This document shows positions 1,509 to 38,500 of a DNA stretch of 41,720 bases, piece by piece. The position numbers and the translations under genes were made by a program. The notes under the pieces were generated by a model. It made no database searches, had not been told where the DNA came from, and saw nothing but the letters and a program-made list of their open reading frames with translations. This stretch comes from a virus (lineage: Duplodnaviria; Heunggongvirae; Uroviricota; Caudoviricetes), in the IMG/VR virus record IMGVR_UViG_646862326_000004, one strand, 5' to 3'. Positions within the stretch are counted from its first letter, which is position 1, and the number at the start of each line of letters is the position of its first letter.

Positions 1509-1748
1509 CTATTTCCTGCGCATGTCACGTAACTTCTTAATGTGTTCTGCCGTTTCGATCTCTTCTGCTATCCGATCTGCATCAGCTTTATTCACAGGTT
1601 CAAAGTCATGATTAAAGCGGAACATGCTGGCGATACATGTTCTGCCTTTTCGGATGTAGTGAACTTTGTTGTGGGTAGAACGCAGGATTTTGCAGGGAGT
1701 GCCGTGGTGGTCGACGTACCAGGTGTTAGGGTCAATCACTCTGAACAT
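1509..1748 (-). CDS. Hypothetical protein (accessory gene in the xis-exo interval)
   Basis: 79-aa ORF, ATG start, overlaps the next upstream gene by 17 nt. No family recognised. Confidence 0.4.
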   Translation of the reverse strand: MFRVIDPNTWYVDHHGTPCKILRSTHNKVHYIRKGRTCIASMFRFNHDFEPVNKADADRIAEEIETAEHIKKLRDMRRK

Positions 1749-2058
1749 TCTTGACCTTGTGTTGTGCGGATTGATATTCAGTGCTGATATTCACCTTTAT
1801 AGCGAACACCTTTACCGGTTTATCGCCAAAGTGCGGATGTGTGATTGTCTTCACTTCATATCCGTCATACGGAACATCAATTCTGCGACTGGAATCGTCG
1901 CGCTTCGGATATCCCTTTGTGATAATCAGGCGGTCATATTCCCGGAACATAATTCGCTTATTCCAGTAGTCATTACACAAGCGATACTCTTCCGTTTTCT
2001 CTCCGCGAATCATGGCATCGAAGTATTCACTTTTAACAGCAAGTTGCAGGTTAGCCAT
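1732..2058 (-). CDS. ASCH/DUF3850-like domain protein (tentative)
   Basis: 108 aa from ATG at 2058 (the track start at 2061 is GTG). N-terminal LAVKSEYFDAMIRGEKTEEYR pattern resembles ASCH-like beta-barrel proteins. Its start overlaps the stop of the upstream gene (TGATG). Confidence 0.45.
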   Translation of the reverse strand: MANLQLAVKSEYFDAMIRGEKTEEYRLCNDYWNKRIMFREYDRLIITKGYPKRDDSSRRIDVPYDGYEVKTITHPHFGDKPVKVFAIKVNISTEYQSAQHKVKNVQSD

Positions 2059-2279
2059 CACTTAATCCCCCTTTGTTTGCGGATAAGCTCCAGATCTTGC
2101 TGGCAACTGGCGCAAGTCCGACAACCCTGAACGGCCAGGCGTCTTCGTTCATCTATCGGATCGCCACACTCACAACAATGAGTGGCAGATACAGCCAGGT
2201 AGTTCAGGCGGCGCATTTTTATTGCTGTGTTGCGCTGTAATTCTTCTATTTCTGATGCTGAATCAATGATGTCTGCCAT
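2058..2279 (-). CDS. DksA/TraR-family C4 zinc-finger protein
   Basis: 73 aa with CxxC-(17)-CxxC (CCECGDPIDERRRLAVQGCRTCASC), typical of phage TraR/DksA-like proteins. Confidence 0.6.
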   Translation of the reverse strand: MADIIDSASEIEELQRNTAIKMRRLNYLAVSATHCCECGDPIDERRRLAVQGCRTCASCQQDLELIRKQRGIK

Positions 2280-2332
2280 CTTTCATTAATCCCTGAACTG
2301 TTGGTTAATACGCTTGAGGGTGAATGCGAACA

Positions 2333-2355
2333 ATAAAAAAGGAGCCTGTAGCTCC
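2333..2355 (-). terminator. Intrinsic terminator on the minus strand (tL2-like position)
   Basis: Stem GGAGC/GCTCC with 5-nt loop (2341..2355) followed on the minus strand by TTTTTTAT. Confidence 0.4.
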
Positions 2356-2472
2356 CTGATAATTTTGCTTTTCATGTTCATCGTTCCTTAAAGACGCCGT
2401 TTAACATGCCGATTGCCAGGCTTAAATGAGTCGGTGTGAATCCCTTCAGCGTTACCGTTTCGCGGTGCTTCT

Positions 2473-2655
2473 TCAGTACGCTACGGCAAATGTCATTGAC
2501 GTTTTTGGAAACTGCTGTCTGACTTTTTTGATTTCAGAATTAGCCTGACGGGCAATGCTGCGAAGGGCGTTTTCTTGCTGAGGTGTCACTGAACAAGCCC
2601 CATGTCGGCAAGCATAAGCACACAGAATATGAAGCCCGCTGCCAGAAAAATGCAT
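2473..2655 (-). CDS. Small hypothetical protein at the lambda orf61 position
   Basis: 60-aa ORF with ATG start, placed where lambda has orf61. Sequence not recognised; could be non-coding. Confidence 0.3.
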   Translation of the reverse strand: MHFSGSGLHILCAYACRHGACSVTPQQENALRSIARQANSEIKKVRQQFPKTSMTFAVAY

Positions 2656-2665
2656 TCAGTGGTTG

Positions 2666-2857
2666 TCATACCTGGTCTCTCTCATCTGCTTCTGCTTTCG
2701 CCACCATCATTTCCAGCTTTTGTGAAAGGGATGTGGCTAACGTATGAAATTCTTCGTCTGTTTCTGCTGGTATTGGCACAAACCTGACTCCAATTTGAGC
2801 AAGGCTATGTGCCAAATCAATACTCGTTCTTAACTCAACAGGAGATGCTTTGTGCAT
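2666..2857 (-). CDS. Lambda orf63-like protein
   Basis: 63 aa; overlaps orf60a-like by 28 nt exactly as the lambda orf63/orf60a pair does; sequence matches my memory of lambda orf63. Confidence 0.5.
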   Translation of the reverse strand: MHKASPVELRTSIDLAHSLAQIGVRFVPIPAETDEEFHTLATSLSQKLEMMVAKAEADERDQV

Positions 2858-3012
2858 ACCGCCCCCCGTTTATTATTTATCTCCTCAGCCAGCCGCTGGG
2901 CTTTCAGCGGATTTCGGATAACAGAAAGACCGTGAAATACCCAGCCTCGCTTTGTAACGGAGTAGACGAAAGTGATCGCGCCTACCCGGATATTATCGTG
3001 AGGATGGGTCAT
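2830..3012 (-). CDS. Lambda orf60a-like protein
   Basis: 60 aa from ATG at 3012, which overlaps the exo stop in an ATGA arrangement (the track start at 3018 is upstream in the same frame). Confidence 0.5.
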
Positions 3013-3689
3013 CGCCATTGCTCTCCAAATACAAAACCAATTTCAGCCAGTGCTTCGTCCATTTTTTCGATGAACTCCGGCACCATCTCGTCAAAACTCG
3101 CCATGTACTTTTCATCCCGCTCAACCACGACATAATGCAGGCCTTCACGCTTCATTCGTGGGTCATAGTTGGCAAAGTACCAGGCATCTTTTCGTGTCAC
3201 CCACATGCTGTACTGCACCTGGGCCATGTAAGCCGACTTTATGGCCTCGAAACCACCGAGCCGGAACTTCATGAAATCCCGGGAGGTAAACGGGCATTTC
3301 AGCTCAAGGCCATTGCCGTCACTGCATAAACCATCGGGAGAGCAGGCGGTGCGCATACTTTCGTCGCGATAGATGATCGGGGATTCAGTAACATTCACGC
3401 CGGAAGTGAATTCAAACAGGGTTCTGGCGTCGTTCTCGTACTGTTTTCCCCACGCCAGCGCCTTAGCATTAACTTCCGGAGCCACACCGGTGCAAACCTC
3501 AGCCAGCAGGGTGTGGAAGTAGGACATTTTCATGTCAGGCCACTTCTTTCCTGAGCGGGGCTTTGCTATCACGTTGTGAACTTCTGAAGCGGTGATGACG
3601 CCGAGCCGTAATTTGTGCCATGCATCATCCCCCTGTTCGACAGCTCTCACGTCGATCCCGGTACGCTGCAGGATAATGTCCGGTGTCAT
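3009..3689 (-). CDS. exo: Lambda exonuclease (Red alpha)
   Basis: 226 aa, [40 protein letters not shown]... near-identical to lambda Exo as recalled; start overlaps bet stop. Confidence 0.95.
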
Positions 3690-4992: not shown

Positions 4993-5125
4993 TTTTTGGG
5001 ACTCCTGGCTGATTAAGTATGTCGATAAGGCGTTTCCATCCGTCACGTAATTTACGGGTGATTCGTTCAAGTAAAGATTCGGAAGGGCAGCCAGCAACAG
5101 GCCACCCTGCAATGGCATATTGCAT
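4961..5125 (-). CDS. cIII: cIII (FtsH inhibitor, lysogeny promotion)
   Basis: Hand-translated 54-aa ORF not in the track: [54 protein letters not shown], matching lambda CIII; overlaps the kil start as in lambda. Confidence 0.8.
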   Translation of the reverse strand: MQYAIAGWPVAGCPSESLLERITRKLRDGWKRLIDILNQPGVPKNGSNNYGYPD

Positions 5126-5197
5126 GGTGTGCTCCTTATTTATACATAACGAAAAACGCCTCGAGTGAAGCGTAATTGGTATGCGGTAACGCCGCGC

Positions 5198-6162: not shown

Positions 6163-6744
6163 ATGAACAACTCATGGTGGCAGGAACTAATGCATTTTTT
6201 CCTGCAAGGAATGACACTTAAACAGTTGATTCATATGCTAATCATCCTGATCATATTGATTATTGTTATGCCGGTAAGCGTAAAAGAATGGATAAACCTG
6301 CATAATCCAGAAATCCTTCCTCATTACTGGATGTATTACATCCTGTTGTTTTGCGTTAGCTATGTGCTTAACGGCGTTGTTAATTCCGCTTATCACGCTG
6401 TGACTGAAAGAATTGAGGTATTCGCTGCTCAGAAGCGCAAATCTAAAGAAGAAAAATATGTGCAAGATTTGTTTGATTCGTTAACTCTTGGAGAAAGAGC
6501 GTATTTGGCATTCGCTGTAGCCGCTAATAACCAGCTACAAACGGAAAAGGGCGCTCATGAATCAATTTCATTGCTCAAAAAAGGACTCCTCGTTCGAAGG
6601 CCTCCTGCTGTTGGATATCCTGATACCGACCGTTTCGTTATCCCTGAAAGCTATAGACATGAGTGCTACATTAGGTTTGCCGGGAAGGCAGACAGCCTTA
6701 TGGATGAACTTATCGCTCAGGATAAGCATGGCAAAAACAAGTAA
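6163..6744 (+). CDS. sieB: Superinfection exclusion protein B
   Basis: 193 aa, MNNSWWQELMHFFLQGMTLKQLIHMLIILIILIIVMPVSV... with N-terminal membrane segments, on the opposite strand inside the leftward operon as in lambda. Confidence 0.85.
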   Translation: MNNSWWQELMHFFLQGMTLKQLIHMLIILIILIIVMPVSVKEWINLHNPEILPHYWMYYILLFCVSYVLNGVVNSAYHAVTERIEVFAAQKRKSKEEKYVQDLFDSLTLGERAYLAFAVAANNQLQTEKGAHESISLLKKGLLVRRPPAVGYPDTDRFVIPESYRHECYIRFAGKADSLMDELIAQDKHGKNK

Positions 6745-7199: not shown

Positions 7200-7300
7200 T
7201 CCAGCGTCCTGCTGACGGTTAAATAGTACGATATGTACTTTACAAGATCAATACAATTTGTTGTAAGTTGGCGTGGTTTTTTATAACGCTTTGTATTTAA
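7200..7300 (-). promoter_or_regulatory. Candidate pL/OL operator-promoter region
   Basis: Inverted repeat AGTAC-GATAT-GTACT at 7225..7239 and ATGTACTTT at 7233..7241, similar to motifs in the cI-cro intergenic region; upstream of N. Confidence 0.35.
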
Positions 7301-7438
7301 TAGTGTTGTTTTTTAGCGTGGATGTATTGCCTCGGCGATGTAAGGAGAGATCAGAATTGCGTGGTTTAGTGGGTTGCATCTATTTATTTTTCAATAAATA
7401 TAATTGGTTATGTGTTTTTAGGTGGGCGAACGTGAGGC

Positions 7439-7464
7439 AAAGAAAACCCGGCGCTGAGGCCGGG
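7439..7464 (-). terminator. Intrinsic terminator ending the cI-proximal operon (tImm-like)
   Basis: CCCGGC-GCTGAG-GCCGGG hairpin (7447..7464) followed on the minus strand by TTTTCTTT, a few nt after the 250-aa ORF stop. Confidence 0.55.
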
Positions 7465-7469
7465 TTGTA

Positions 7470-8222
7470 TTATGCTGCAAGTCTCTTAACCCAAGTCTCT
7501 CTTTTGGAGAATGGTAGAACTTGGCTTGATTCATGGAAGAGTAAGGAGAGTTGTTGCATTTGATCACCAATTGCTTCGCTGTCTATAACAACAAATCTGT
7601 TGTTATACTCCTCACTTGAAGCTTTAAGATCAATTAGTTTCCCAAGCAATGAGTAAGCACTATTCCAGCTTCCTCCGTGTTTCACGCTTGATGTAAAAAC
7701 GTATTTAGGTATGTCGGTTTTTATTGTTACAGGGACGGTAATTTGATGTCCACTCAAGCCATATACGTTTTCACGAAGAGAAAGTGCGTCTCTAAGCTCT
7801 GTGTGATATAGATAATCAATAACCATACTTTCAAACTTTTCAGCTTGAACTGGCTGATACCAGTCTAACGACAAAGTTGATGCGAGTATACCAGCTCTAA
7901 TTATGTTCGATGTAATCGCACCGACATCCTTTTCTGTTGCCCAAGCAATGATTTCTCCTCGAGCATTGAGTTCTGCGCCTTCTTTAAGCAGTAATTGTCG
8001 TATCTCATCAAGTCGTTTTTTGGTAAGCGAGATCCCTCTTGCCTCCATATTCATTAAGGCATCGCATCTGTCACTAACTAAATACCTACCATTGACTTCA
8101 CGGATAAAGGCACCGACATGCTCTCCATCATCACAGTAAGTGAATGGACTGATAATTCTCAAGGTCTTGCCTATTGGATGGCATTCGAAACCTAGTTGTG
8201 AGATCACTGTTGAGCACATCAT
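7470..8222 (-). CDS. Hypothetical 250-aa protein, second gene of the rexAB-position operon
   Basis: ATG at 8222 overlaps the stop of the upstream ORF (ATGA); no obvious transmembrane segment; no family recognised. Confidence 0.6.
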   Translation of the reverse strand: MMCSTVISQLGFECHPIGKTLRIISPFTYCDDGEHVGAFIREVNGRYLVSDRCDALMNMEARGISLTKKRLDEIRQLLLKEGAELNARGEIIAWATEKDVGAITSNIIRAGILASTLSLDWYQPVQAEKFESMVIDYLYHTELRDALSLRENVYGLSGHQITVPVTIKTDIPKYVFTSSVKHGGSWNSAYSLLGKLIDLKASSEEYNNRFVVIDSEAIGDQMQQLSLLFHESSQVLPFSKRETWVKRLAA

Positions 8223-8776
8223 ATTCCAAACCCCATTTGCCCCGACTCATCTTCAAGCGGTAAAGGTATTCTCCCAGAGTAAGTTATGTTCAGATGTTTA
8301 CAGAAGTAATTCCAATACCCTACCAGGTCATCTGGGTTTATGTCATCTTCGATTGGAAACGCTATTCTATCACTATAGTATCCAGCTTCTTCATAGTATA
8401 CATGGTAGTGAGCACCGTAAATGATATCTTGGTACTTCGGATGATCGACCTTGTAACTATTCGTGTGTTTGTCAAAGTGATAGGTATCTACCGCGAAAAC
8501 CCTCTTGTTATGATAGAAAGCAATAATATTTATTTTAGGGTAAGAAATCGGGTCATCAGGTTCTGAATCCTGATCTGGTTTCCATTTCAGTTCAAACTTT
8601 AGCCCTTGTATAGGTATACAATCCTCATCCAAGGGGATGATATGGGCTTGTAGCCACATATCAGAGCGACTTGGTTTCTGTTTCCATTTAACGCCAGAAA
8701 AGTTAACTATTTTTTTACAATAAAGTACTTTATCAACTTCTACTTGGCTTGGCTGATAATCATCTATTTTTGCCAA
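8219..8776 (-). CDS. Hypothetical 185-aa protein, first gene of the rexAB-position operon
   Basis: ORF beginning 39 nt after the cI stop; the track start at 8776 is TTG with a weak GGGCGG upstream, and the first in-frame ATG is at codon 40, so the start is uncertain. Rich in Tyr/His/Trp; no family recognised. Confidence 0.5.
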   Translation of the reverse strand: MAKIDDYQPSQVEVDKVLYCKKIVNFSGVKWKQKPSRSDMWLQAHIIPLDEDCIPIQGLKFELKWKPDQDSEPDDPISYPKINIIAFYHNKRVFAVDTYHFDKHTNSYKVDHPKYQDIIYGAHYHVYYEEAGYYSDRIAFPIEDDINPDDLVGYWNYFCKHLNITYSGRIPLPLEDESGQMGFGI

Positions 8777-8815
8777 TGTTTACCGCCCTGTAAATTGTAG
8801 ATAAAAGTGGTTTCA

Positions 8816-9475
8816 TCACCCAAACGTCTCTTCAGGCCATTGGCTGGCGATAACTTTCCCCACAACGGAACAACTCTCATTGCATGGGATCATTGGGTAT
8901 TGTGGGTTTAGTGGCTGTAGAAACACCTGACCGCTATCCCTGATCAGTTTCTTGAAGGTAAATTCATCACCACCAAGTCTGGCTATGCAGAAATCGCCGG
9001 GCTCAACAGCTTGCTCAGGGTCAACCAGAATTAACATCCCGTCAGGAAAGCTGGGTTTGGAACCTGTTGGTGCGGTCATTGAGTTACCTTCAACCTCAAG
9101 CCAGAATGCAGAGTCACTGGCTTTTTTGGTTGTGCTTACCAATCTCTCCGCATCGCCTTTGGTAAAGGTTCTGAGTTCTGGAGAGAACATCCCAGCCTGA
9201 ACATGAGAAAAAACAGGGTACTCATATTGTTTTTTAACTGGGGCCGATGAGTATTCGCCAACAGGTGAAAATGTCCCGTCGTGGTTGAATGATATGTTAT
9301 CAATACCAAGGTATTTAAACACCACACCAATATCACTAAGAGATGGATGACGAGATCCGCGCAACCAGTGTCCAATCCCACCCTGCGTCATACCTAGCTC
9401 TTCGGCTAACTTCTCTTGAGTTATGCCGAGCTCTTTCATTCTGGATCTAGCCAGTTCATACCATTTCATTTTCAT
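8816..9475 (-). CDS. cI: CI-type prophage repressor (lambda-like LexA-type C-terminal domain, different N-terminal HTH)
   Basis: C-terminal part ([17 protein letters not shown] ... [12 protein letters not shown]) matches lambda CI; N-terminal HTH ([18 protein letters not shown]) differs. Start chosen at ATG 9475 (MKMKWYEL); 9469 and 9511 are alternatives. Confidence 0.85.
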
Positions 9476-9586
9476 GTCCTTATTATTACGCTCTGTACTG
9501 GAACCATCCATGCACAATGTGTATTTTTACTTGTATTCGCAAAGTACATATTGTATTTTTTTATTCGTGTTTACTATGGAGGGCAT
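9476..9586. promoter_or_regulatory. OR-like divergent operator/promoter region (pRM / pR)
   Basis: About 110-bp AT-rich interval between divergent cI and cro, with repeated TTGTATTTTT and AGTACATATTGTA motifs similar to the 7225..7240 motif. Confidence 0.45.
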
Positions 9587-9802: not shown

Positions 9803-9943
9803 TAAGCGGATCCGCTCTTTGTAACAACGGACATTCGTCCTACGTCGCTGAAAAGCGAGTTCCAAGATATCTGACCAACTAAGGCCATATGCGTTTCCAC
9901 GCATACCTTTCAACTAACTATTCACTATTGGAAATCTTAAGAA

Positions 9944-10240
9944 ATGGAAAGAACAAGTTACAGCAAACTATCACAGCGTGACGTTGATCGCGCAGAAACA
10001 GATTTACTTATCAATCTGTCAGCTATTACCCAGCGCGGTCTGGCAAAGATGATTGGCTGTCATGAATCGAAGATAAGCAGAACGGACTGGAGATTTATTG
10101 CTTCGGTCTTGTGTGCTTTCGGAATGGCATCAGACATCAGTCCGATTAGCAGGGCTTTTAAGTATGCGCTTGATGGACTCACCAATAAAAAACGCCCGGC
10201 GGCAACCGAGCGTTCTGAACAAATCCAGATGGAATTCTGA
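9944..10240 (+). CDS. cII: CII transcriptional activator
   Basis: 98 aa; C-terminus LTNKKRPAATERSEQIQMEF matches lambda CII, N-terminal half differs. Confidence 0.8.
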   Translation: MERTSYSKLSQRDVDRAETDLLINLSAITQRGLAKMIGCHESKISRTDWRFIASVLCAFGMASDISPISRAFKYALDGLTNKKRPAATERSEQIQMEF

Positions 10241-10272
10241 GGTCATTACTGGATCAATCCACAGGAGTCATT

Positions 10273-11172: not shown

Positions 11173-11870
11173 AAAACATCGCCGCACAGATGGTTAATTT
11201 TGACCGTGAGCAGATGCGTCGGATCGCCAACAACATGCCGGAACAGTACGACGAAAAGCCGCAGGTACAGCAGGTAGCGCAGATCATCAACGGTGTGTTC
11301 AGCCAGTTACTGGCAACTTTCCCGGCGAGTCTGGCTAACCGTGACCAGAACGAACTGAACGAAATCCGCCGCCAGTGGGTTCTGGCTTTCCGGGAAAACG
11401 GGATCACCACAATGGAACAGGTTAACGCAGGAATGCGCGTAGCCCGTCGGCAGAATCGACCATTTCTGCCATCACCCGGGCAGTTTGTTGCATGGTGCCG
11501 GGAAGAAGCATCCGTTATCGCCGGACTGCCAAACGTCAGCGAGCTGGTTGATATGGTTTACGAGTATTGCCGGAAGCGAGGCCTGTATCCGGATGCAGAG
11601 TCTTATCCGTGGAAATCGAACGCGCACTACTGGCTGGTTACCAACCTGTACCAGAACATGCGGGCCAATGCGCTGACTGACGCGGAATTACGACGCAAGG
11701 CTGCCGATGAACTGACCTGTATGACAGCGCGAATTAACCGTGGTGAGACGATACCTGAACCAGTAAAACAACTTCCTGTCATGGGCGGCAGACCTCTAAA
11801 TCGTGTTCAGGCGCTGGCGAAGATCGCAGAAATTAAAGCTAAGTTAGGACTGAAAGGAGCAAGTGTATGA
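11169..11870 (+). CDS. P: Replication protein P (DnaB helicase loader)
   Basis: 233 aa, MKNIAAQMVNFDREQMRRIANNMPEQYDEKPQVQQ... matches lambda P. Confidence 0.95.
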   Translation: MKNIAAQMVNFDREQMRRIANNMPEQYDEKPQVQQVAQIINGVFSQLLATFPASLANRDQNELNEIRRQWVLAFRENGITTMEQVNAGMRVARRQNRPFLPSPGQFVAWCREEASVIAGLPNVSELVDMVYEYCRKRGLYPDAESYPWKSNAHYWLVTNLYQNMRANALTDAELRRKAADELTCMTARINRGETIPEPVKQLPVMGGRPLNRVQALAKIAEIKAKLGLKGASV

Positions 11871-12157
11871 CGGGCAAAGAGGCAATTATTCATTACCTGG
11901 GGACGCATAATAGCTTCTGTGCGCCGGACGTTGCCGCGCTAACAGGCGCAACAGTAACCAGCATAAATCAGGCCGCGGCTAAAATGGCACGGGCAGGTCT
12001 TCTGGTTATCGAAGGTAAGGTCTGGCGAACGGTGTATTACCGGTTTGCTACCAAGGAAGAACGGGAAGGAAAGATGAGCACGAACCTGATTTTTAAGGAG
12101 TGTCGCCAGAGTGCCACGATGAAACGGATATTGGCGGTATATGGAGTTAAAAGATGA
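11867..12157 (+). CDS. ren: Ren
   Basis: 96 aa; start overlaps P stop; lambda Ren-like sequence and length. Confidence 0.75.
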   Translation: MTGKEAIIHYLGTHNSFCAPDVAALTGATVTSINQAAAKMARAGLLVIEGKVWRTVYYRFATKEEREGKMSTNLIFKECRQSATMKRILAVYGVKR

Positions 12158-12181: not shown

Positions 12182-12211
12182 CAGGCCTGCAGGTAATCGC
12201 AGGCCTTTTTA
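12182..12211 (+). terminator. Intrinsic terminator (tR2-like) between ren and ninB
   Basis: AGGCCTGC-(8 nt)-GCAGGCCT hairpin followed by TTTTTATTT. Confidence 0.5.
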
Positions 12212-12230
12212 TTTGGGGGAGAGGGAAGTC

Positions 12231-12671
12231 ATGAAAAAACTAACCTTTGAAATTCGATCTCCGGCACATCAGCAAAACGCTATTCACGCAGTACAGCAAA
12301 TCCTTCCAGACCCAACCAAACCAATCGTAGTAACCATTCAGGAACGCAACCGCAGCTTAGACCAAAACAGGAAGCTATGGGCCTGCTTAGGTGACGTCTC
12401 TCGTCAGGTTGAATGGCATGGTCGCTGGCTGGATGCAGAAAGCTGGAAGTGTGTGTTTACCGCAGCATTAAAGCAGCAGGATGTTGTTCCTAACCTTGCC
12501 GGGAATGGCTTTGTGGTAATAGGCCAGTCAACCAGCAGGATGCGTGTAAGCGAATTTGCGGAGCTATTAGAGCTTATACAGGCATTCGGTACAGAGCGTG
12601 GCGTTAAGTGGTCAGACGAAGCGCGACTGGCTCTCGAATGGAAAGCGCGATGGGGAGATCGGGCTGCATGA
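12231..12671 (+). CDS. ninB: NinB recombination protein
   Basis: 146 aa from ATG 12231 (MKKLTFEIRSPAHQQNAIHAVQQILPD...) matching lambda NinB. Confidence 0.85.
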   Translation: MKKLTFEIRSPAHQQNAIHAVQQILPDPTKPIVVTIQERNRSLDQNRKLWACLGDVSRQVEWHGRWLDAESWKCVFTAALKQQDVVPNLAGNGFVVIGQSTSRMRVSEFAELLELIQAFGTERGVKWSDEARLALEWKARWGDRAA

Positions 12672-13195
12672 CTATCAAATCAAATACGCCAGCACACGAC
12701 AAGGACTGCTGGCAAACGCCGCTTTGGCTTTTTGATGCACTGGATATTGAGTTTGGATTCTGGCTGGATTCGGCAGCGAGCGACAAAAATGCTCTGTGCG
12801 CTCACTGGCTAACTGAGGACGACGACGCGCTCAATTCTGAGTGGGTAAGCCACGGTGCAATCTGGAATAACCCACCGTACAGCAATATCAGGCCGTGGGT
12901 GGAAAAAGCCGCTGAGCAGTGTATACAACAGCGACAGACGGTAGTGATGCTTGTGCCAGAGGATATGTCTGTCGGATGGTTCAGCAAGGCTCTGGAGAGT
13001 GTTGACGAAGTTCGTATTATCACTGATGGACGGATTAATTTTATCGAACCATCGACAGGGCTGGAGAAGAAGGGAAACAGCAAAGGCTCCATGCTGCTGA
13101 TTTGGCGACCGTTCATCAGTCCTCGACGGATGTTTACTACCGTATCCAAAGCGGCATTGATGGCGATCGGGCAGGGCGTCAGGAGGGCTGCATGA
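12668..13195 (+). CDS. Phage DNA N6-adenine methyltransferase (Dam-like, orphan)
   Basis: 175 aa from ATG 12668 (ATGA overlap with ninB stop); NPPY motif (IWNNPPYS). Confidence 0.75.
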
Positions 13196-15075: not shown

Positions 15076-16158
15076 TTAGAACTGATAAACCAGACCTACA
15101 GCGACGATGTCGTCGGTATCAATACCAGCTGTTTTGGTAAACTTACTATCGTCAATTAAGTTGATTTTGTAATCAACAAAAGTGGACATGTTTTTATTAA
15201 AGTAGTAAGTAGCACCGACATCGACATACTTGACTAAGTCTCGGTCACCATGAACACCAAGGTCTTTACCTTTTGACTGAAGGTAAGCAACAGATGGACG
15301 CAGACCGAAGTCAAACTGATATTGTGCTACTGCTTCAAAGTTTTGTGCTTTGTTTGCAATATGGTTATTACCAAAAACGGTCATATTCTGAGTTTCAGAA
15401 TATGTGGTAGCCAGATAGATATTGTTCGCATCATATTTCAGGCCTGCAGCCCATACTTCCGCATTTTTGCCGGAGGCATTGAATTTGCTCTTACCATAGG
15501 CGACCTGACCGTCAGTGCGATCTGATTTAGCATAGGTTGCACCCACGCCGAATCCTTCATACTCATAAGTAGTGGAGAAACCGAAACCATCACCATTGGC
15601 TTCAGTTACGTCAGTGCGGTCATTTTTACCCTGATACTGAGCAGCAAAGTTCAGGCCATCGACCAGACCAAAGAAGTCGTTGTTACGATAAGTTGCAACA
15701 CCAGTAGTGCGACCAGTCATGAACACATCTGTTTGGGTCCAGGTATCACCACCGAATTCTGGCAGAACGTCAGTCCACGCACCGATGTCGTATGCTACAC
15801 CGTAGTTACGGCCGTAATCGATTGAGCCGTAATCACCAAATTTCAGGCCTGCAAATGCAAGACGGGTTTTGTCTTTGGAAGAACCTTGAGATTCAGCACG
15901 GTTGCCTTTGAATTCATATTCCCACTGACCGAAACCAGTCAGTTGATCGTTGATTTGGGTTTCACCTTTGAAGCCAAGACGGGCATAAGTAGTATCACCA
16001 TCATCTGCATCATTAGAGGAGAAGTAGTGCTTGGCATTAACTTTCCCGTATAGATCCAGCTTGTTACTGTCTTTATTATAAATTTCAGCTGCCTGAGCAG
16101 ACATCGCCATCAGTACTGATGCAGCTACAGCAGAAATTGCCACTGTTAATTTTTTCAT
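15076..16158 (-). CDS. nmpC: Outer-membrane general porin (NmpC/OmpD-like), prophage-encoded
   Basis: 360 aa from ATG 16158 with signal peptide [23 protein letters not shown], OmpC-family beta-barrel features and C-terminal Phe; matches my memory of DLP12 NmpC. Confidence 0.9.
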
Positions 16159-16584
16159 TGTACGCCCTTTTTTTGAACTATTATTAAAAAATGATGTCAC
16201 TGCGCGATAAATATTCATCTAATCAATGTGATTATTTCAAGATGTAAGTTTTAGTTTCTCATTTAATTTGTGAAGTAGATCTCTATTTTTATCTGAACCT
16301 TTTCTATCTAATCCTATTCATGGCTCTTGTCTGAACAAAAATAAATCTATTAGCTAATTTATATTAATGGCACTTATTTATAAGTGCTCTATAATTCTTT
16401 AGCTTAATTTAAACAAACTAAAAATAACATCGGAAATTATTAACTGGTTATTTGTTGAAGTTTTCTTATGCATTTGTGGTGGTGTTTTGAACACTCGGTG
16501 GCATTCTCACAAATATCATTTAGTAGTTTACGTACGTAAAAAATTGGTTATGCTGTTAAGAGTGGTTACTTCGTCACACAGCTT

Positions 16585-16617
16585 AAACCCGCCGTCGAGC
16601 GGGTTTTTCCATTTTTT
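16585..16617 (+). terminator. Intrinsic terminator upstream of the lysis cassette (candidate tR')
   Basis: AAACCCGC-CGTCGA-GCGGGTTT hairpin followed by TTCCATTTTTT, about 130 nt before the holin start; a possible sigma-70-like promoter (TTTACG-16-TATGCT) lies just upstream. Confidence 0.4.
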
Positions 16618-16746
16618 GAGTCTCGATATTAGCTGATAACCCAATACCTGAGTTATTCACTGACTCCGAATCTGTTACGTTTCTGCCTTTATTGCGATAC
16701 GTAGTATCCCCTTAATTTACACCCGCTTTGTCTGCGAGGTGGGGTT

Positions 16747-16962
16747 ATGAAATCCATGGATAAGTTAACAACGGGTGTCGCCTATGGTACCTCAGCAGGT
16801 AGTGCCGGGTACTGGTTTTTACAGTTGCTCGATAAAGTCACGCCCTCACAGTGGGCGGCAATAGGTGTGCTGGGTAGCCTGGTATTTGGCCTGCTGACGT
16901 ACCTGACAAACCTTTATTTCAAGATTAAAGAAGATAAGCGCAAGGCTGCGAGAGGTGAATAA
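16747..16962 (+). CDS. Pinholin (phage 21 S-type class II holin)
   Basis: 71 aa, [45 protein letters not shown]...; two transmembrane segments and dual Met starts (M1/M4). Confidence 0.85.
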
Positions 16963-17459
16963 TGCCTCCATCATTACGAAAAGCCGTTGCTGCTGCTATT
17001 GGTGGCGGAGCAATTGCTATAGCATCAGTGTTAATCACTGGCCCAAGTGGTAACGATGGTCTGGAAGGTGTCAGCTACATACCATACAAAGATATTGTTG
17101 GTGTATGGACTGTATGTCACGGGCATACAGGAAAAGACATCATGCTCGGTAAAACGTATACCAAAGCAGAATGCAAAGCCCTCCTGAATAAAGACCTTGC
17201 CACGGTCGCCAGACAAATTAACCCGTACATCAAAGTCGATATACCGGAAACAATGCGCGGCGCTCTTTACTCATTCGTTTACAACGTGGGTGCTGGCAAT
17301 TTCAGAACATCGACGCTTCTTCGCAAAATCAACCAGGGCGATATCAAAGGCGCATGTGATCAGCTACGTCGCTGGACATATGCTGGCGGTAAGCAATGGA
17401 AAGGTCTCATGACTCGTCGTGAGATTGAGCGTGAAATCTGTTTGTGGGGTCAGCAATGA
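16962..17459 (+). CDS. SAR endolysin (T4-lysozyme family muramidase)
   Basis: 165 aa; N-terminal Gly/Ala-rich signal-anchor-release segment ([20 protein letters not shown]); start overlaps the holin stop. Confidence 0.9.
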
Positions 17460-35537: not shown

Positions 35538-38500
35538 ATGGGTAAAGGCAGCAGTAAGGGGCATACCCCGCGCGAAGCGAAGGACAACCTGAAATCCACG
35601 CAGCTGCTGAGTGTGATTGATGCCATCAGCGAAGGGCCGGTTGAAGGTCCGGTGGATGGATTAAAAAGCGTGCTGCTGAACAGTACGCCGGTGCTGGACA
35701 GTGAGGGGAATACCAATATATCCGGCGTCACGGTGGTGTTCCGGGCAGGTGAGCAGGAGCAGTCACCGCCGGAGGGATTTGAATCCTCCGGCTCCGAGAC
35801 GGTGCTGGGTACGGAAGTGAAATATGACACGCCGATCACCCGCACCATTACGTCGGCAAACATCGACCGTCTGCGCTTTACCTTCGGTGTACAGGCACTG
35901 GTGGAAACCACCTCAAAGGGTGACAGGAATCCGTCGGAAGTCCGTCTGCTGGTTCAGATACAGCGTAATGGTGGCTGGGTGACGGAAAAAGACATCACCA
36001 TTAAGGGCAAAACCACCTCGCAGTATCTGGCCTCGGTGGTGGTGGGTAACCTGCCGCCGCGCCCGTTCAATATACGGATGCGCAGGATGACGCCGGACAG
36101 CACCACAGACCAGCTGCAGAACAAAACGCTCTGGTCGTCATACACCGAAATCATCGATGTGAAACAGTGCTACCCGAACACGGCACTGGTCGGCGTGCAG
36201 GTGGACTCGGAGCAGTTCGGCAGCCAGCAGGTGAGCCGTAATTATCATCTTCGCGGGCGCATTCTGCAGGTGCCGTCGAACTATAACCCGCAGACGCGGC
36301 AATACAGCGGTATCTGGGACGGAACGTTTAAGCCAGCATACAGCAACAACATGGCCTGGTGTCTGTGGGATATGCTGACCCATCCGCGCTACGGCATGGG
36401 GAAACGTCTTGGTGCGGCAGATGTGGATAAATGGGCGCTGTATGTCATCGGCCAGAATTGCGACCAGTCAGTGCCGGACGGCTTTGGCGGCACGGAGCCG
36501 CGCATCACCTGTAATGCGTACCTGACCACACAGCGCAAGGCGTGGGATGTGCTCAGTGATTTTTGCTCGGCGATGCGCTGTATGCCGGTATGGAACGGGC
36601 AGACGCTGACATTCGTGCAGGACCGACCGTCGGATAAGGTGTGGACCTATAACCGCAGTAATGTGGTGATGCCGGATGATGGCGCGCCGTTCCGCTACAG
36701 CTTCAGCGCCCTGAAAGACCGCCATAATGCCGTTGAGGTGAACTGGATTGACCCGGATAACGGCTGGGAGACGGCGACAGAGCTTGTGGAGGACACGCAG
36801 GCCATTGCCCGTTACGGTCGTAACGTCACGAAGATGGATGCCTTTGGCTGTACCAGCCGGGGGCAGGCACACCGCGCCGGGCTGTGGCTGATTAAAACGG
36901 AGCTGCTGGAAACGCAGACCGTGGACTTCAGCGTGGGTGCAGAAGGGCTTCGCCATGTACCGGGCGATGTCATTGAAATCTGTGATGATGACTATGCGGG
37001 GATCAGCATCGGCGGGCGCGTGCTGGCGGTGAACAACCAGACGCGGACACTGACGCTCGACCGTGAAATCACGCTGCCATCCTCCGGCACCACGCTGATA
37101 AGCCTGGCTGACGGACAGGGGAATCCGGTCAGCGTGGAGGTCCAGTCCGTCACCGACGGCGTGAAGGTAAAAGTGAGCCGTGTTCCTGACGGCGTTGCAG
37201 AATACAGCGTGTGGGGGCTGAAGTTGCCAACGTTGCGCCAGCGCCTGTTCCGCTGTGTGAGTATCCGTGAGAACGATGACGGCACGTATGCCATCACTGC
37301 CGTGCAGCATGTACCGGAAAAAGAGGCCATCGTGGATAACGGGGCGCACTTTGACGGCGACCAGAGCGGCACGGTGAATGGTGTCACGCCGCCAGCGGTG
37401 CAGCACCTGACTGCCGAAGTCACCGCAGACAGCGGGGAATATCAGGTGCTGGCGCGCTGGGACACGCCGAAGGTGGTGAAGGGGGTGAGCTTTATGCTTC
37501 GCCTGACCGTGGCAGCGGATGACGGCAGTGAGCGGCTGGTCAGCACGGCCCGGACGACGGAAACCACATACCGCTTCAGGCAACTGGCGCTGGGGAACTA
37601 CAGGCTGACAGTCCGGGCGGTAAATGCGTGGGGGCAGCAGGGCGATCCGGCATCGGTATCGTTCCGGATTGCCGCACCGGCAGCGCCGTCGCAGATTGAG
37701 CTGACACCGGGGTATTTTCAGATAACCGCCACGCCGCATCTTGCGGTTTATGATCCGACGGTACAGTTTGAGTTCTGGTTCTCGGAAAAGCGGATTGCGG
37801 ATATCAGGCAGGTTGAAACCACAGCACGCTATCTTGGCACGGCGCTGTACTGGATAGCCGCCAGTATCAATATCAAACCGGGCCATGATTATTATTTTTA
37901 CATCCGCAGTGTGAACACCGTTGGCAAATCGGCATTTGTGGAGGCTGTTGGCCAGCCGAGTGATGATGCATCCGGCTATCTGAATTTTTTCAAAGGAGAG
38001 ATAGGGAAAACCCATCTGGCTCAGGAGTTGTGGACGCAGATTGATAACGGTCAGCTTGCGCCTGACCTGGCTGAAATCAGGACGTCCATTACGGGTGTCA
38101 GCAATGAAATCACGCAGACCGTCAATAAGAAACTGGAAGACCAGAGTGCAGCGATCCAGCAGATACAGAAGGTTCAGGTTGATACAAATAATAACCTGAA
38201 CAGCATGTGGGCTGTGAAGCTGCAGCAGATGCAGGACGGACGCCTTTATATCGCGGGTATTGGTGCCGGTGTTGAGAATACTCCTGACGGTATGCAGAGT
38301 CAGGTGCTGCTGGCGGCGGACAGGATTGCGATGATTAATCCTGCGAATGGCAACACAAAGCCGATGTTTGTTGGGCAGGGCGATCAGATATTCATGAACG
38401 AAGTGTTCCTGAAATATCTGACGGCTCCCACCATTACCAGCGGTGGCAATCCCCCAACGTTTTCACTGACACCTGATGGTCGACTTTCTGCGAAAAATGC

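Follow-up and report, generated by a model that had tools for sequence, protein, structure and literature searches.

In phage lambda, the classic exclusion genes rexA and rexB lie beside the repressor gene, and RexB is a polytopic membrane protein. A second described system with a bearing on the present locus, PDC-M24, is one of 145 guilt-by-embedding candidates from BREX, DISARM and type I restriction-modification (RM) loci, where it appears as cassette CAS_00098 (FAM_00129>>FAM_00065) with a count of 153 in the table (Payne et al. 2024). We analysed a stretch of 41,720 nucleotides (nt) of virus DNA (Caudoviricetes; IMG/VR record IMGVR_UViG_646862326_000004), hereafter the window, in which two genes that we call A and B occupy the rexAB slot between the cI repressor gene and the tImm terminator. 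The most economical reading of this A/B cassette, to which we assign a probability of about two in three, is that of an anti-phage cassette expressed in the lysogen in place of rexAB. The cassette is a positional analogue of RexAB and not a homologue. Profile matches suggest instead that it is a divergent, prophage-borne relative of candidate PDC-M24, clearly so for B and marginally for A.

The likeness to lambda RexAB consists of the slot between the cI stop and tImm, the co-orientation with cI and the number of genes; by analogy, expression in the lysogen and a role in exclusion may be presumed. The difference lies in the proteins, as A and B lack RexA similarity and any membrane segment and are predicted to have other folds. 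The likeness to PDC-M24 is that a small protein precedes a DUF1828-type protein of ~250 amino acids (aa), adjacent and co-directional, whereas PDC-M24 was defined within BREX, DISARM and type I RM loci and the branch described here lies beside prophage repressors.

The borders of the cassette are listed in Table 1. In BLAST comparisons with lambda and the sister phage PhiR11_1, homology stopped at 7466 and restarted at 8814/8815, and the segment 7345-7466 was 90% identical to lambda 35708-35826, ending within the rexB stop codon. These breaks, at 7466/7467 and 8814/8815, indicate that the terminator is the ancestral lambda tImm and that the inserted cassette starts directly beyond it and ends at the cI side of the slot. 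Between the cI stop and tImm, the cassette takes the place of rexAB exactly, and its G+C content is 39.5% compared to 50.4% for the window. On the other side of the upper border, the C-terminal half of cI (8815-9226) shared 93% DNA identity with lambda cI, and the cI DNA was 98.7% identical to that of PhiR11_1; in Escherichia coli Nissle 1917 the cI protein is RefSeq WP_001302016.1. A preliminary description of the locus, made from the sequence alone, had pictured a two-gene operon of 185 and 250 codons with an ATGA overlap, co-oriented with a lambda-like cI in the rexAB slot and closed by the tImm terminator, and each of these elements was found where it had been placed.

Table 1. Coordinates in the window of the A/B cassette, its parts and the adjoining immunity-region features.
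Feature	Position	Strand	Description
Exchanged cassette	7467-8814	(-)	1,348 bp; replaces lambda 35827-37225 (rexB-rexA with spacers)
Intrinsic terminator, lambda tImm homologue	7437-7466	(-)	stem-loop 7466-7445 plus T-rich tail
Gene B	7470-8222	(-)	250 aa; WP_000968518.1
ATGA overlap, A stop/B start	8219-8222	(-)	translational coupling of A and B
Gene A	8219-8776	(-)	185 aa; TTG start; WP_001062368.1
cI-A spacer	8777-8815	(-)	39 nt; purine-rich GGGCGG ~8 nt upstream of the TTG start
cI repressor	8816-9517	(-)	233 aa; HTH_3 and Peptidase_S24 domains
Operator-like inverted repeat	left arm 7221-7241, right arm 9541-9561		21 nt, 86% complementary

The terminator scan found no terminator-like site in the cI-A spacer. 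At the far end of the cassette, the terminator hairpin begins 3 nt past the B stop codon; its stem of 8 pairs includes 6 G-C pairs, and TTTTCTTT comes directly after it. A promoter scan inside the cassette returned 5 sites compared to 6.4 expected by chance, and promoter-like sites at this level provide no evidence for a pLIT-like internal promoter. Repeats inside the cassette were short and at chance level only. We treat cI as context and not as part of the cassette; the presumed pRM/pRE transcript that carries the cassette would begin with cI, and we infer that A and B are co-transcribed with this gene in the lysogen. Despite its TTG start in place of ATG, A keeps an N-terminal MAK that was invariant in 18 orthologues. 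The two arms of the operator-like inverted repeat are probably the OL and OR operator sites of the cI repressor, and since the repeat flanks both sides, the cassette lies inside the immunity region.

Comparison of A and B with lambda RexA by BLASTP gave E values of 11 or more. RexB was not compared directly, and Rex families were absent from the Pfam, NCBIfam and PADLOC scans of A and B. The preliminary description had held that neither protein resembles the Rex proteins; this stands for RexA by direct comparison and for RexB by way of the family scans. It had also seen no transmembrane segment in either protein, and this agrees with the maximum 19-residue Kyte-Doolittle means (0.45 for A, 1.19 for B): neither protein has a transmembrane-like segment or a signal peptide.

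Protein B matched Pfam DUF1828 over residues 26-110 with 33.5 bits (gathering threshold 22), as did the B family as a whole (9/9 members), and it belongs to phrog_1960. It also matched the PADLOC profile PDC-M24B essentially end to end (E 4.7e-10; residues 2-249 on profile positions 4-254 of 256). All nine family members matched PDC-M24B models over their full length, with a best E of 1.8e-15. The AlphaFold2 model of B (pLDDT 82, pTM 0.69) comprises two domains. The N-domain (~1-120, DUF1828) is predicted to have a fold like that of YbjN and type III secretion chaperones, and the C-domain (~125-250) a restriction-endonuclease-like fold of the DUF1829/PDDEXK clan that includes the alpha-beta-beta-beta-alpha-beta core of the PD-(D/E)XK fold. 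This two-domain model agrees with the HHblits domains given for B in the table of DeWeirdt et al. (2026), DUF1828 at 25-114 and DUF1829 (PDDEXK clan) at 155-241; hmmscan of the window B did not detect DUF1829.

The conserved residues of the C-domain do not include a canonical nuclease site. Seven residues were invariant down to 31% identity (G155, S157, G158, P164, T177, G194 and D198). H159 and K173, invariant in the close family, became variable once the 31%-identity relatives were added, and an acidic pair plus lysine was not conserved in the C-domain in the alignment of this depth. As the invariant set shrinks and H159 and K173 vary, we conclude that the canonical D...(D/E)xK set is not conserved in B. 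This separates the B family from PD-(D/E)XK nucleases of the Can2/Card1 type, which also carry a CARF domain where B has the YbjN/type III secretion chaperone-like one. The N-domain of B, which keeps D32-G33-E34, D51, R70 and G89-E90, is the most conserved part of either protein. At its C-terminus, B ends in LAA in 23 of 31 orthologues and in LVA in 4 of 31, with SLAA or QIAA in distant ones; by analogy with ssrA-type tags, the LAA end is a possible ClpXP recognition signal.

Protein A is soluble, acidic and beta-rich. Down to 21% identity, ten of its residues were invariant (K22, W31, R92, D97, N106, G121, H123, H125, F158 and P173) and H104 was nearly so, and this Asp/His pattern is suggestive of metal binding or catalysis. 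Disorder is predicted for the last ~11 residues, which form a conserved acidic tail (...PLPLEDESGQ.G), in which E175, S178-G179-Q180 and G182 were invariant in the close family; the near-terminal GQ was kept in most distant members. The family is very small: it comprises 21 clusters at 90% identity, and only 20 proteins among 1.84 billion representatives reached E<=1e-3 in a profile search. Against Pfam DUF6978, A scored 22 bits, below the gathering threshold of 29.6 and over the C-terminal part only; weak DUF6978 matches occurred in 5 of 15 A-family members (best E 1.1e-4). The match of A to PADLOC PDC-M24A was likewise marginal (E 4.8e-4, residues 104-163 on profile positions 79-134 of 148), and of the three PDC-M24A models, two were matched by 3 of the 15 members each and one by a single member, with a best E of 2.4e-4. 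The preliminary description had assigned neither protein to a known family; this no longer holds for B, with its DUF1828 and PDC-M24B matches, and A has the weak DUF6978 and PDC-M24A matches.

Structure searches added little for A, which showed no recognisable catalytic fold and no match to a solved structure. Sequence searches of solved structures, with single proteins and with profiles, returned nothing meaningful. The sole nominally significant match, the designed Kelch propeller SAKe6AC-LB, was rejected as spurious: it adds up six matches of the RIYAvD..H.N segment to the repeated blade, none of which is significant by itself. A Foldseek search of A against viral predicted structures found one uncharacterised siphovirus protein (E 4.6e-4), which was uninformative.

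The order of the two genes is conserved far beyond the window. In all loci examined, an A-like open reading frame (ORF) lies directly upstream of, and overlaps, a DUF1828 ORF of 245-255 aa. These loci come from Salmonella, Klebsiella, Aeromonas, Thorsellia, Photorhabdus, Izhakiella, Yersinia, Providencia, Xenorhabdus and Pantoea, and further ones from three metagenomic lineages and a Shiga toxin (Stx) phage of type Stx1a. The overlapping A-before-B order was kept down to 22% (A) and 31% (B) identity. Four pairs had identities to the window proteins (A/B) of 70/84, 44/65, 36/54 and 22/31%, and A diverged faster than B in every pair. Synonymous sites were saturated, dN was 0.09-0.68 and dN/dS did not exceed 0.2 where computable; both genes are under purifying selection. 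The orthologous pairs in other genera, together with the saturated synonymous sites and low dN/dS, indicate that A and B are genuine genes.

The neighbourhood of the pair is also recurrent. In most inspected loci, the pair follows a co-oriented prophage repressor gene directly or with one small ORF between, and the repressors vary, from S24-type cI to short helix-turn-helix (HTH) repressors with a divergent YdaS/Cro-like gene. There were two exceptions: in one metagenomic lineage (L025/L026) no repressor-type domain was recorded upstream, and in another locus (L029) the putative repressor had no Pfam hit and a YecR-like gene intervenes. Every relative examined had a prophage or phage-like context, and none lay within BREX, DISARM or type I RM loci. 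An identical cassette stands beside an unrelated repressor in the Stx1a phage Stx1_121427.

At 90% identity, the exact proteins fall in clusters of 358 (A) and 283 (B) members, and both proteins occur on at least 1,000 contigs each. The cassette was present in 241 of 5,426 complete E. coli genomes (~4%), and its carriers include Nissle 1917 (a probiotic that also serves as a chassis), the asymptomatic-bacteriuria strain ABU 83972, strain O18, the type strain ATCC 11775 and Stx-converting phages. A search of species-representative genomes with the B alignment returned 8 loci. The carrier prophage of Nissle 1917 is left-truncated: what is left of the integrase gene lies beside a frameshifted transposase of the IS3 family (ISEc52 family), and this transposase is in turn the neighbour of sieB. 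The whole recombination region is missing, but sieB-N-B-A-cI is intact. A further A/B junction, with 64% (A) and 82% (B) identity to the enterobacterial proteins, was found in an actinomycete assembly, on a contig of only 518 bp (NZ_JBHSON010000334.1, labelled Actinomadura rugatobispora). Contamination is the most likely source of this contig, which would then not be a true actinobacterial copy.

Other genes occupy the same slot in related phages. Full-length cI was present in 776 complete E. coli genomes, the cassette in only 239-241. Several other kinds of cargo stand in the slot beside this cI. In the same-cI phages PhiR11_1 and 2G7b the slot holds a pair of 283 and 163 aa (at 1667-3047 in PhiR11_1), whose sizes are like those of RexA and RexB and whose second protein is hydrophobic. 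The PhiR11_1 pair had no detectable similarity to RexA or RexB and no Pfam or PADLOC match, and it may be a Rex analogue of unrelated sequence. Stx1 and Stx2 phages have a 173-aa ORF (b63) without family assignment in the slot (763-1284 at the Stx1 locus). The slot of phage E212 (473-1330) encodes just one protein, of 285 aa, which has a Pfam NYN domain (E 6.8e-9) and weakly matches HEC-09, a validated defence system. The cI-to-tImm slot is polymorphic within E. coli.

Both exact proteins have been flagged before. Table S5 of DeWeirdt et al. (2026, Science) includes them, from an ECOR strain, under the label 'Predicted novel defense gene'; their DefensePredictor log-odds are 4.90 (A) and 5.64 (B), the cut-off being 4. 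The pair was therefore not unrecognised, as the preliminary description had called it, and it has a distant relative in PDC-M24 of Payne et al. (2024). Its status as a candidate anti-phage system remains the best reading and a plausible one, on ground that two computational screens had already flagged. The pair is neither unrecognised nor characterised; it is computationally flagged defence cargo in a repressor-adjacent slot.

Several observations together favour the defence reading. The cassette sits in the rexAB slot with no terminator between cI and A, the slot is polymorphic and the cassette mobile, its G+C content contrasts with that of the window, and synteny is conserved under purifying selection. 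The predictions of PDC-M24B and of DefensePredictor, which are independent, point the same way. Taking everything together, we consider it somewhat better than an even chance that the cassette is a cargo ('moron') operon protecting the lysogen against other phages.

As to the A-B complex, the identity of the effector, the trigger and the defence phenotype, we infer the following course of events. A and B would be two cytoplasmic proteins transcribed with cI in the lysogen, which they would protect by superinfection exclusion or abortive infection. Coupled translation would supply matched amounts of A and B, which would form an A-B complex. In this complex, B would act as sensor or regulator: its DUF1828 domain would bind a partner, possibly the disordered tail of A or a phage product, and its DUF1829 domain, lacking a conserved catalytic triad, would bind nucleic acid or mediate oligomerisation. 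The conserved LAA would make B a ClpXP substrate and hence short-lived. A would be the effector through D97, H104, N106, H123 and H125, probably a metal-dependent hydrolytic site. Infection would titrate B or halt its resynthesis, and A, once freed, would block phage development or kill the cell. We offer this division of labour, with A as effector and B as labile regulator or sensor, only tentatively, as the odds are against its being correct in this form.

A number of points weigh against the defence reading or this form of it. The match of A to PDC-M24A is marginal (E ~2e-4 to 5e-4) and confined to the C-terminal half. Since A has no recognisable catalytic fold, the label of effector rests only on its invariant residues, and the faster divergence of A would fit a specificity or sensor component. 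As the LAA tail of B forms the end of a predicted helix in the model, its role may be structural. If the cI operon included a labile antitoxin, the prophage would run the risk of poisoning its own induction; we identified no self-immunity element. PDC-M24 is itself only a candidate defence system (Payne et al. 2024). The accessions of A and B are not among the 118 cloned and tested units of DeWeirdt et al. (2026), where the overall validation rate of DefensePredictor was 45%; at this rate, a DefensePredictor call alone is weak. We found no experiment on the A/B pair in the readable literature.

Among the alternatives, the one that survives best reverses the roles, so that B is a sensor-nuclease whose DUF1828 domain senses a phage component and whose DUF1829 domain cuts DNA or RNA, with A as a specificity, activating or inhibitory partner. 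The faster divergence of A is what such an arrangement would lead one to expect, and PD-(D/E)XK effectors are prevalent in defence. However, the C-domain of B shows no conserved acidic pair plus lysine, its H159 and K173 vary at 31% identity, and hmmscan did not recover DUF1829 in the window B. We therefore consider the reversed arrangement doubtful, with a chance well short of even.

A toxin-antitoxin or addiction module, chiefly stabilising the prophage or its retention by the host, appears improbable. Like type II toxin-antitoxin pairs, A and B are small, adjacent and translationally coupled by an ATGA overlap; the pair is compact, one partner may carry a ClpXP degradation tag, and the cassette has been kept in the defective prophage 3 of Nissle 1917, where the integrase is truncated beside a frameshifted IS3-family transposase. 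Unlike such pairs, neither protein has an HTH, ribbon-helix-helix or AbrB-type domain or belongs to a known toxin or antitoxin family in Pfam, NCBIfam or PADLOC, and cassette relatives embedded in RM, BREX and DISARM loci point to defence. As many toxin-antitoxin systems also act in defence, this alternative overlaps with the cargo operon protecting the lysogen.

RexA has been reported to have a non-exclusion role in the lambda switch. The cassette could by the same token have an accessory part in regulating the lysis-lysogeny decision or the induction of its own prophage, acting on DNA or on the repressor; the linkage of the pair to repressor genes of several families would suit this role, and the predicted nuclease-like fold of B could bind DNA. 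We rate such a role as very improbable. Unrelated repressors (S24-type cI, short HTH) share the same cassette, which argues against a partnership specific to one switch; the distant PDC-M24 relatives occur outside prophages, in RM and BREX loci; and the cassette is lacking from about two thirds of the prophages that have this cI.

Equally improbable is lysogenic-conversion cargo unrelated to phage conflict, serving for example host physiology or virulence, since all context evidence points to conflict systems and both proteins are cytoplasmic, with neither signal peptide nor membrane segment, even though neither family has an assigned function and the cassette is common in extra-intestinal and commensal strains (Nissle 1917, ABU 83972, O18).

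Several described defence systems share features with the cassette read as lysogen-expressed defence cargo. DS-6/HipAD pairs a HipA-like kinase with a protein that weakly matches DUF1829 (HHpred probability 0.78), and the authors proposed the DUF1829-like protein as an antitoxin-like, toxin- and DNA-binding partner (DeWeirdt et al. 2026). The likeness is that of a validated two-protein system with a weak-DUF1829 protein as the non-toxin partner; the difference is that DS-6 has a HipA-like kinase and a DUF3037 N-domain, where the present cassette has protein A and DUF1828. Immunity-region defence genes expressed in the lysogen are also found as BstA in BTP1-like phages, as RemAIN and gipd474 in Gifsy prophages, and as DS-34, in which a phage repressor CI gene is accompanied by one hypothetical gene and which was validated in DeWeirdt et al. 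(2026). RemAIN has three components (HEPN nuclease, ATPase, immunity protein), BstA is a single protein and gipd474 a single gene; the proteins of these four systems are unrelated to A and B and none has DUF1828. RemAIN, HepS and gipd474 of Gifsy were considered as relatives of the cassette and rejected, as their proteins are unrelated.

One published experiment comes close to the locus. Bury et al. (2018) demonstrated a response of Nissle prophage 3 genes to Stx phages, and they cloned a 'phage repressor (pr)' gene that was reported to protect K-12 against lambda and Stx phages. Their pr cloning primers map to 9898-10267 of the window, one exactly and one with a single mismatch, and their forward primer for quantitative PCR matches exactly at 10141-10158. 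The amplicon covers the cII homologue (9944-10240), not cI. As the primers fall in cII, pr is ruled out as a test of the cassette, which that study did not examine. Elsewhere in the literature, the searchable main texts held nothing under DUF1828, DUF6978, PDC-M24 or either WP accession, queries with the phage names gave irrelevant matches only, and a domain-centric screen (PMC13069673) made no mention of the domains of A and B.

The window as a whole is a lambda-like temperate phage, with the local gene order int-xis-exo-bet-gam-kil-cIII-ea10-ral-sieB-N / B-A-cI / cro-cII-O-P-ren. It is collinear with Escherichia phage PhiR63_2 from nt 133 of the latter, and over the 17.7 kb compared the blocks were 100% and 99.96% identical. 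A ~700-bp segment of the nin region with an IS200-family transposase is present in PhiR63_2 (12346-13050) and missing from the window (~12208-12213). Phages ev207, ev017 and PhiR57_1 share an identical immunity segment of 2.3 kb with it. Two classical exclusion genes lie nearby, sieB at 6163-6744 (+), adjoining N, and ren at ~11867-12157 (+), after P; with both in the same phage, the A/B cassette would be one of several exclusion functions. The sole Rfam family in the window was Lambda_thermo, the cIII thermoregulator RNA element, at 5080-5138 (-) with 88.5 bits, and the scan found no RNA family in the cassette region. An OmpD-like outer-membrane porin gene, annotated in PhiR63_2 at 15919-17061, maps to ~15076-16218 (-) of the window between Q and the holin gene, a position typical of lysogenic-conversion cargo.

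The value of the finding is tempered by the two computational screens that already flag the pair, and by the fact that repressor-adjacent defence cargo is now expected. If confirmed, the cassette would be a new two-protein anti-phage system present in ~4% of complete E. coli genomes, and it would provide a first function for DUF1828 and for the A family. The cI-to-tImm slot would gain a well-defined case as an exchangeable defence locus, in which one repressor is found with different cargo and one cargo with different repressors. The finding also bears on the host range of phage therapy against Nissle-like and extra-intestinal pathogenic E. coli strains, and on the competition between lambdoid and Stx phages.

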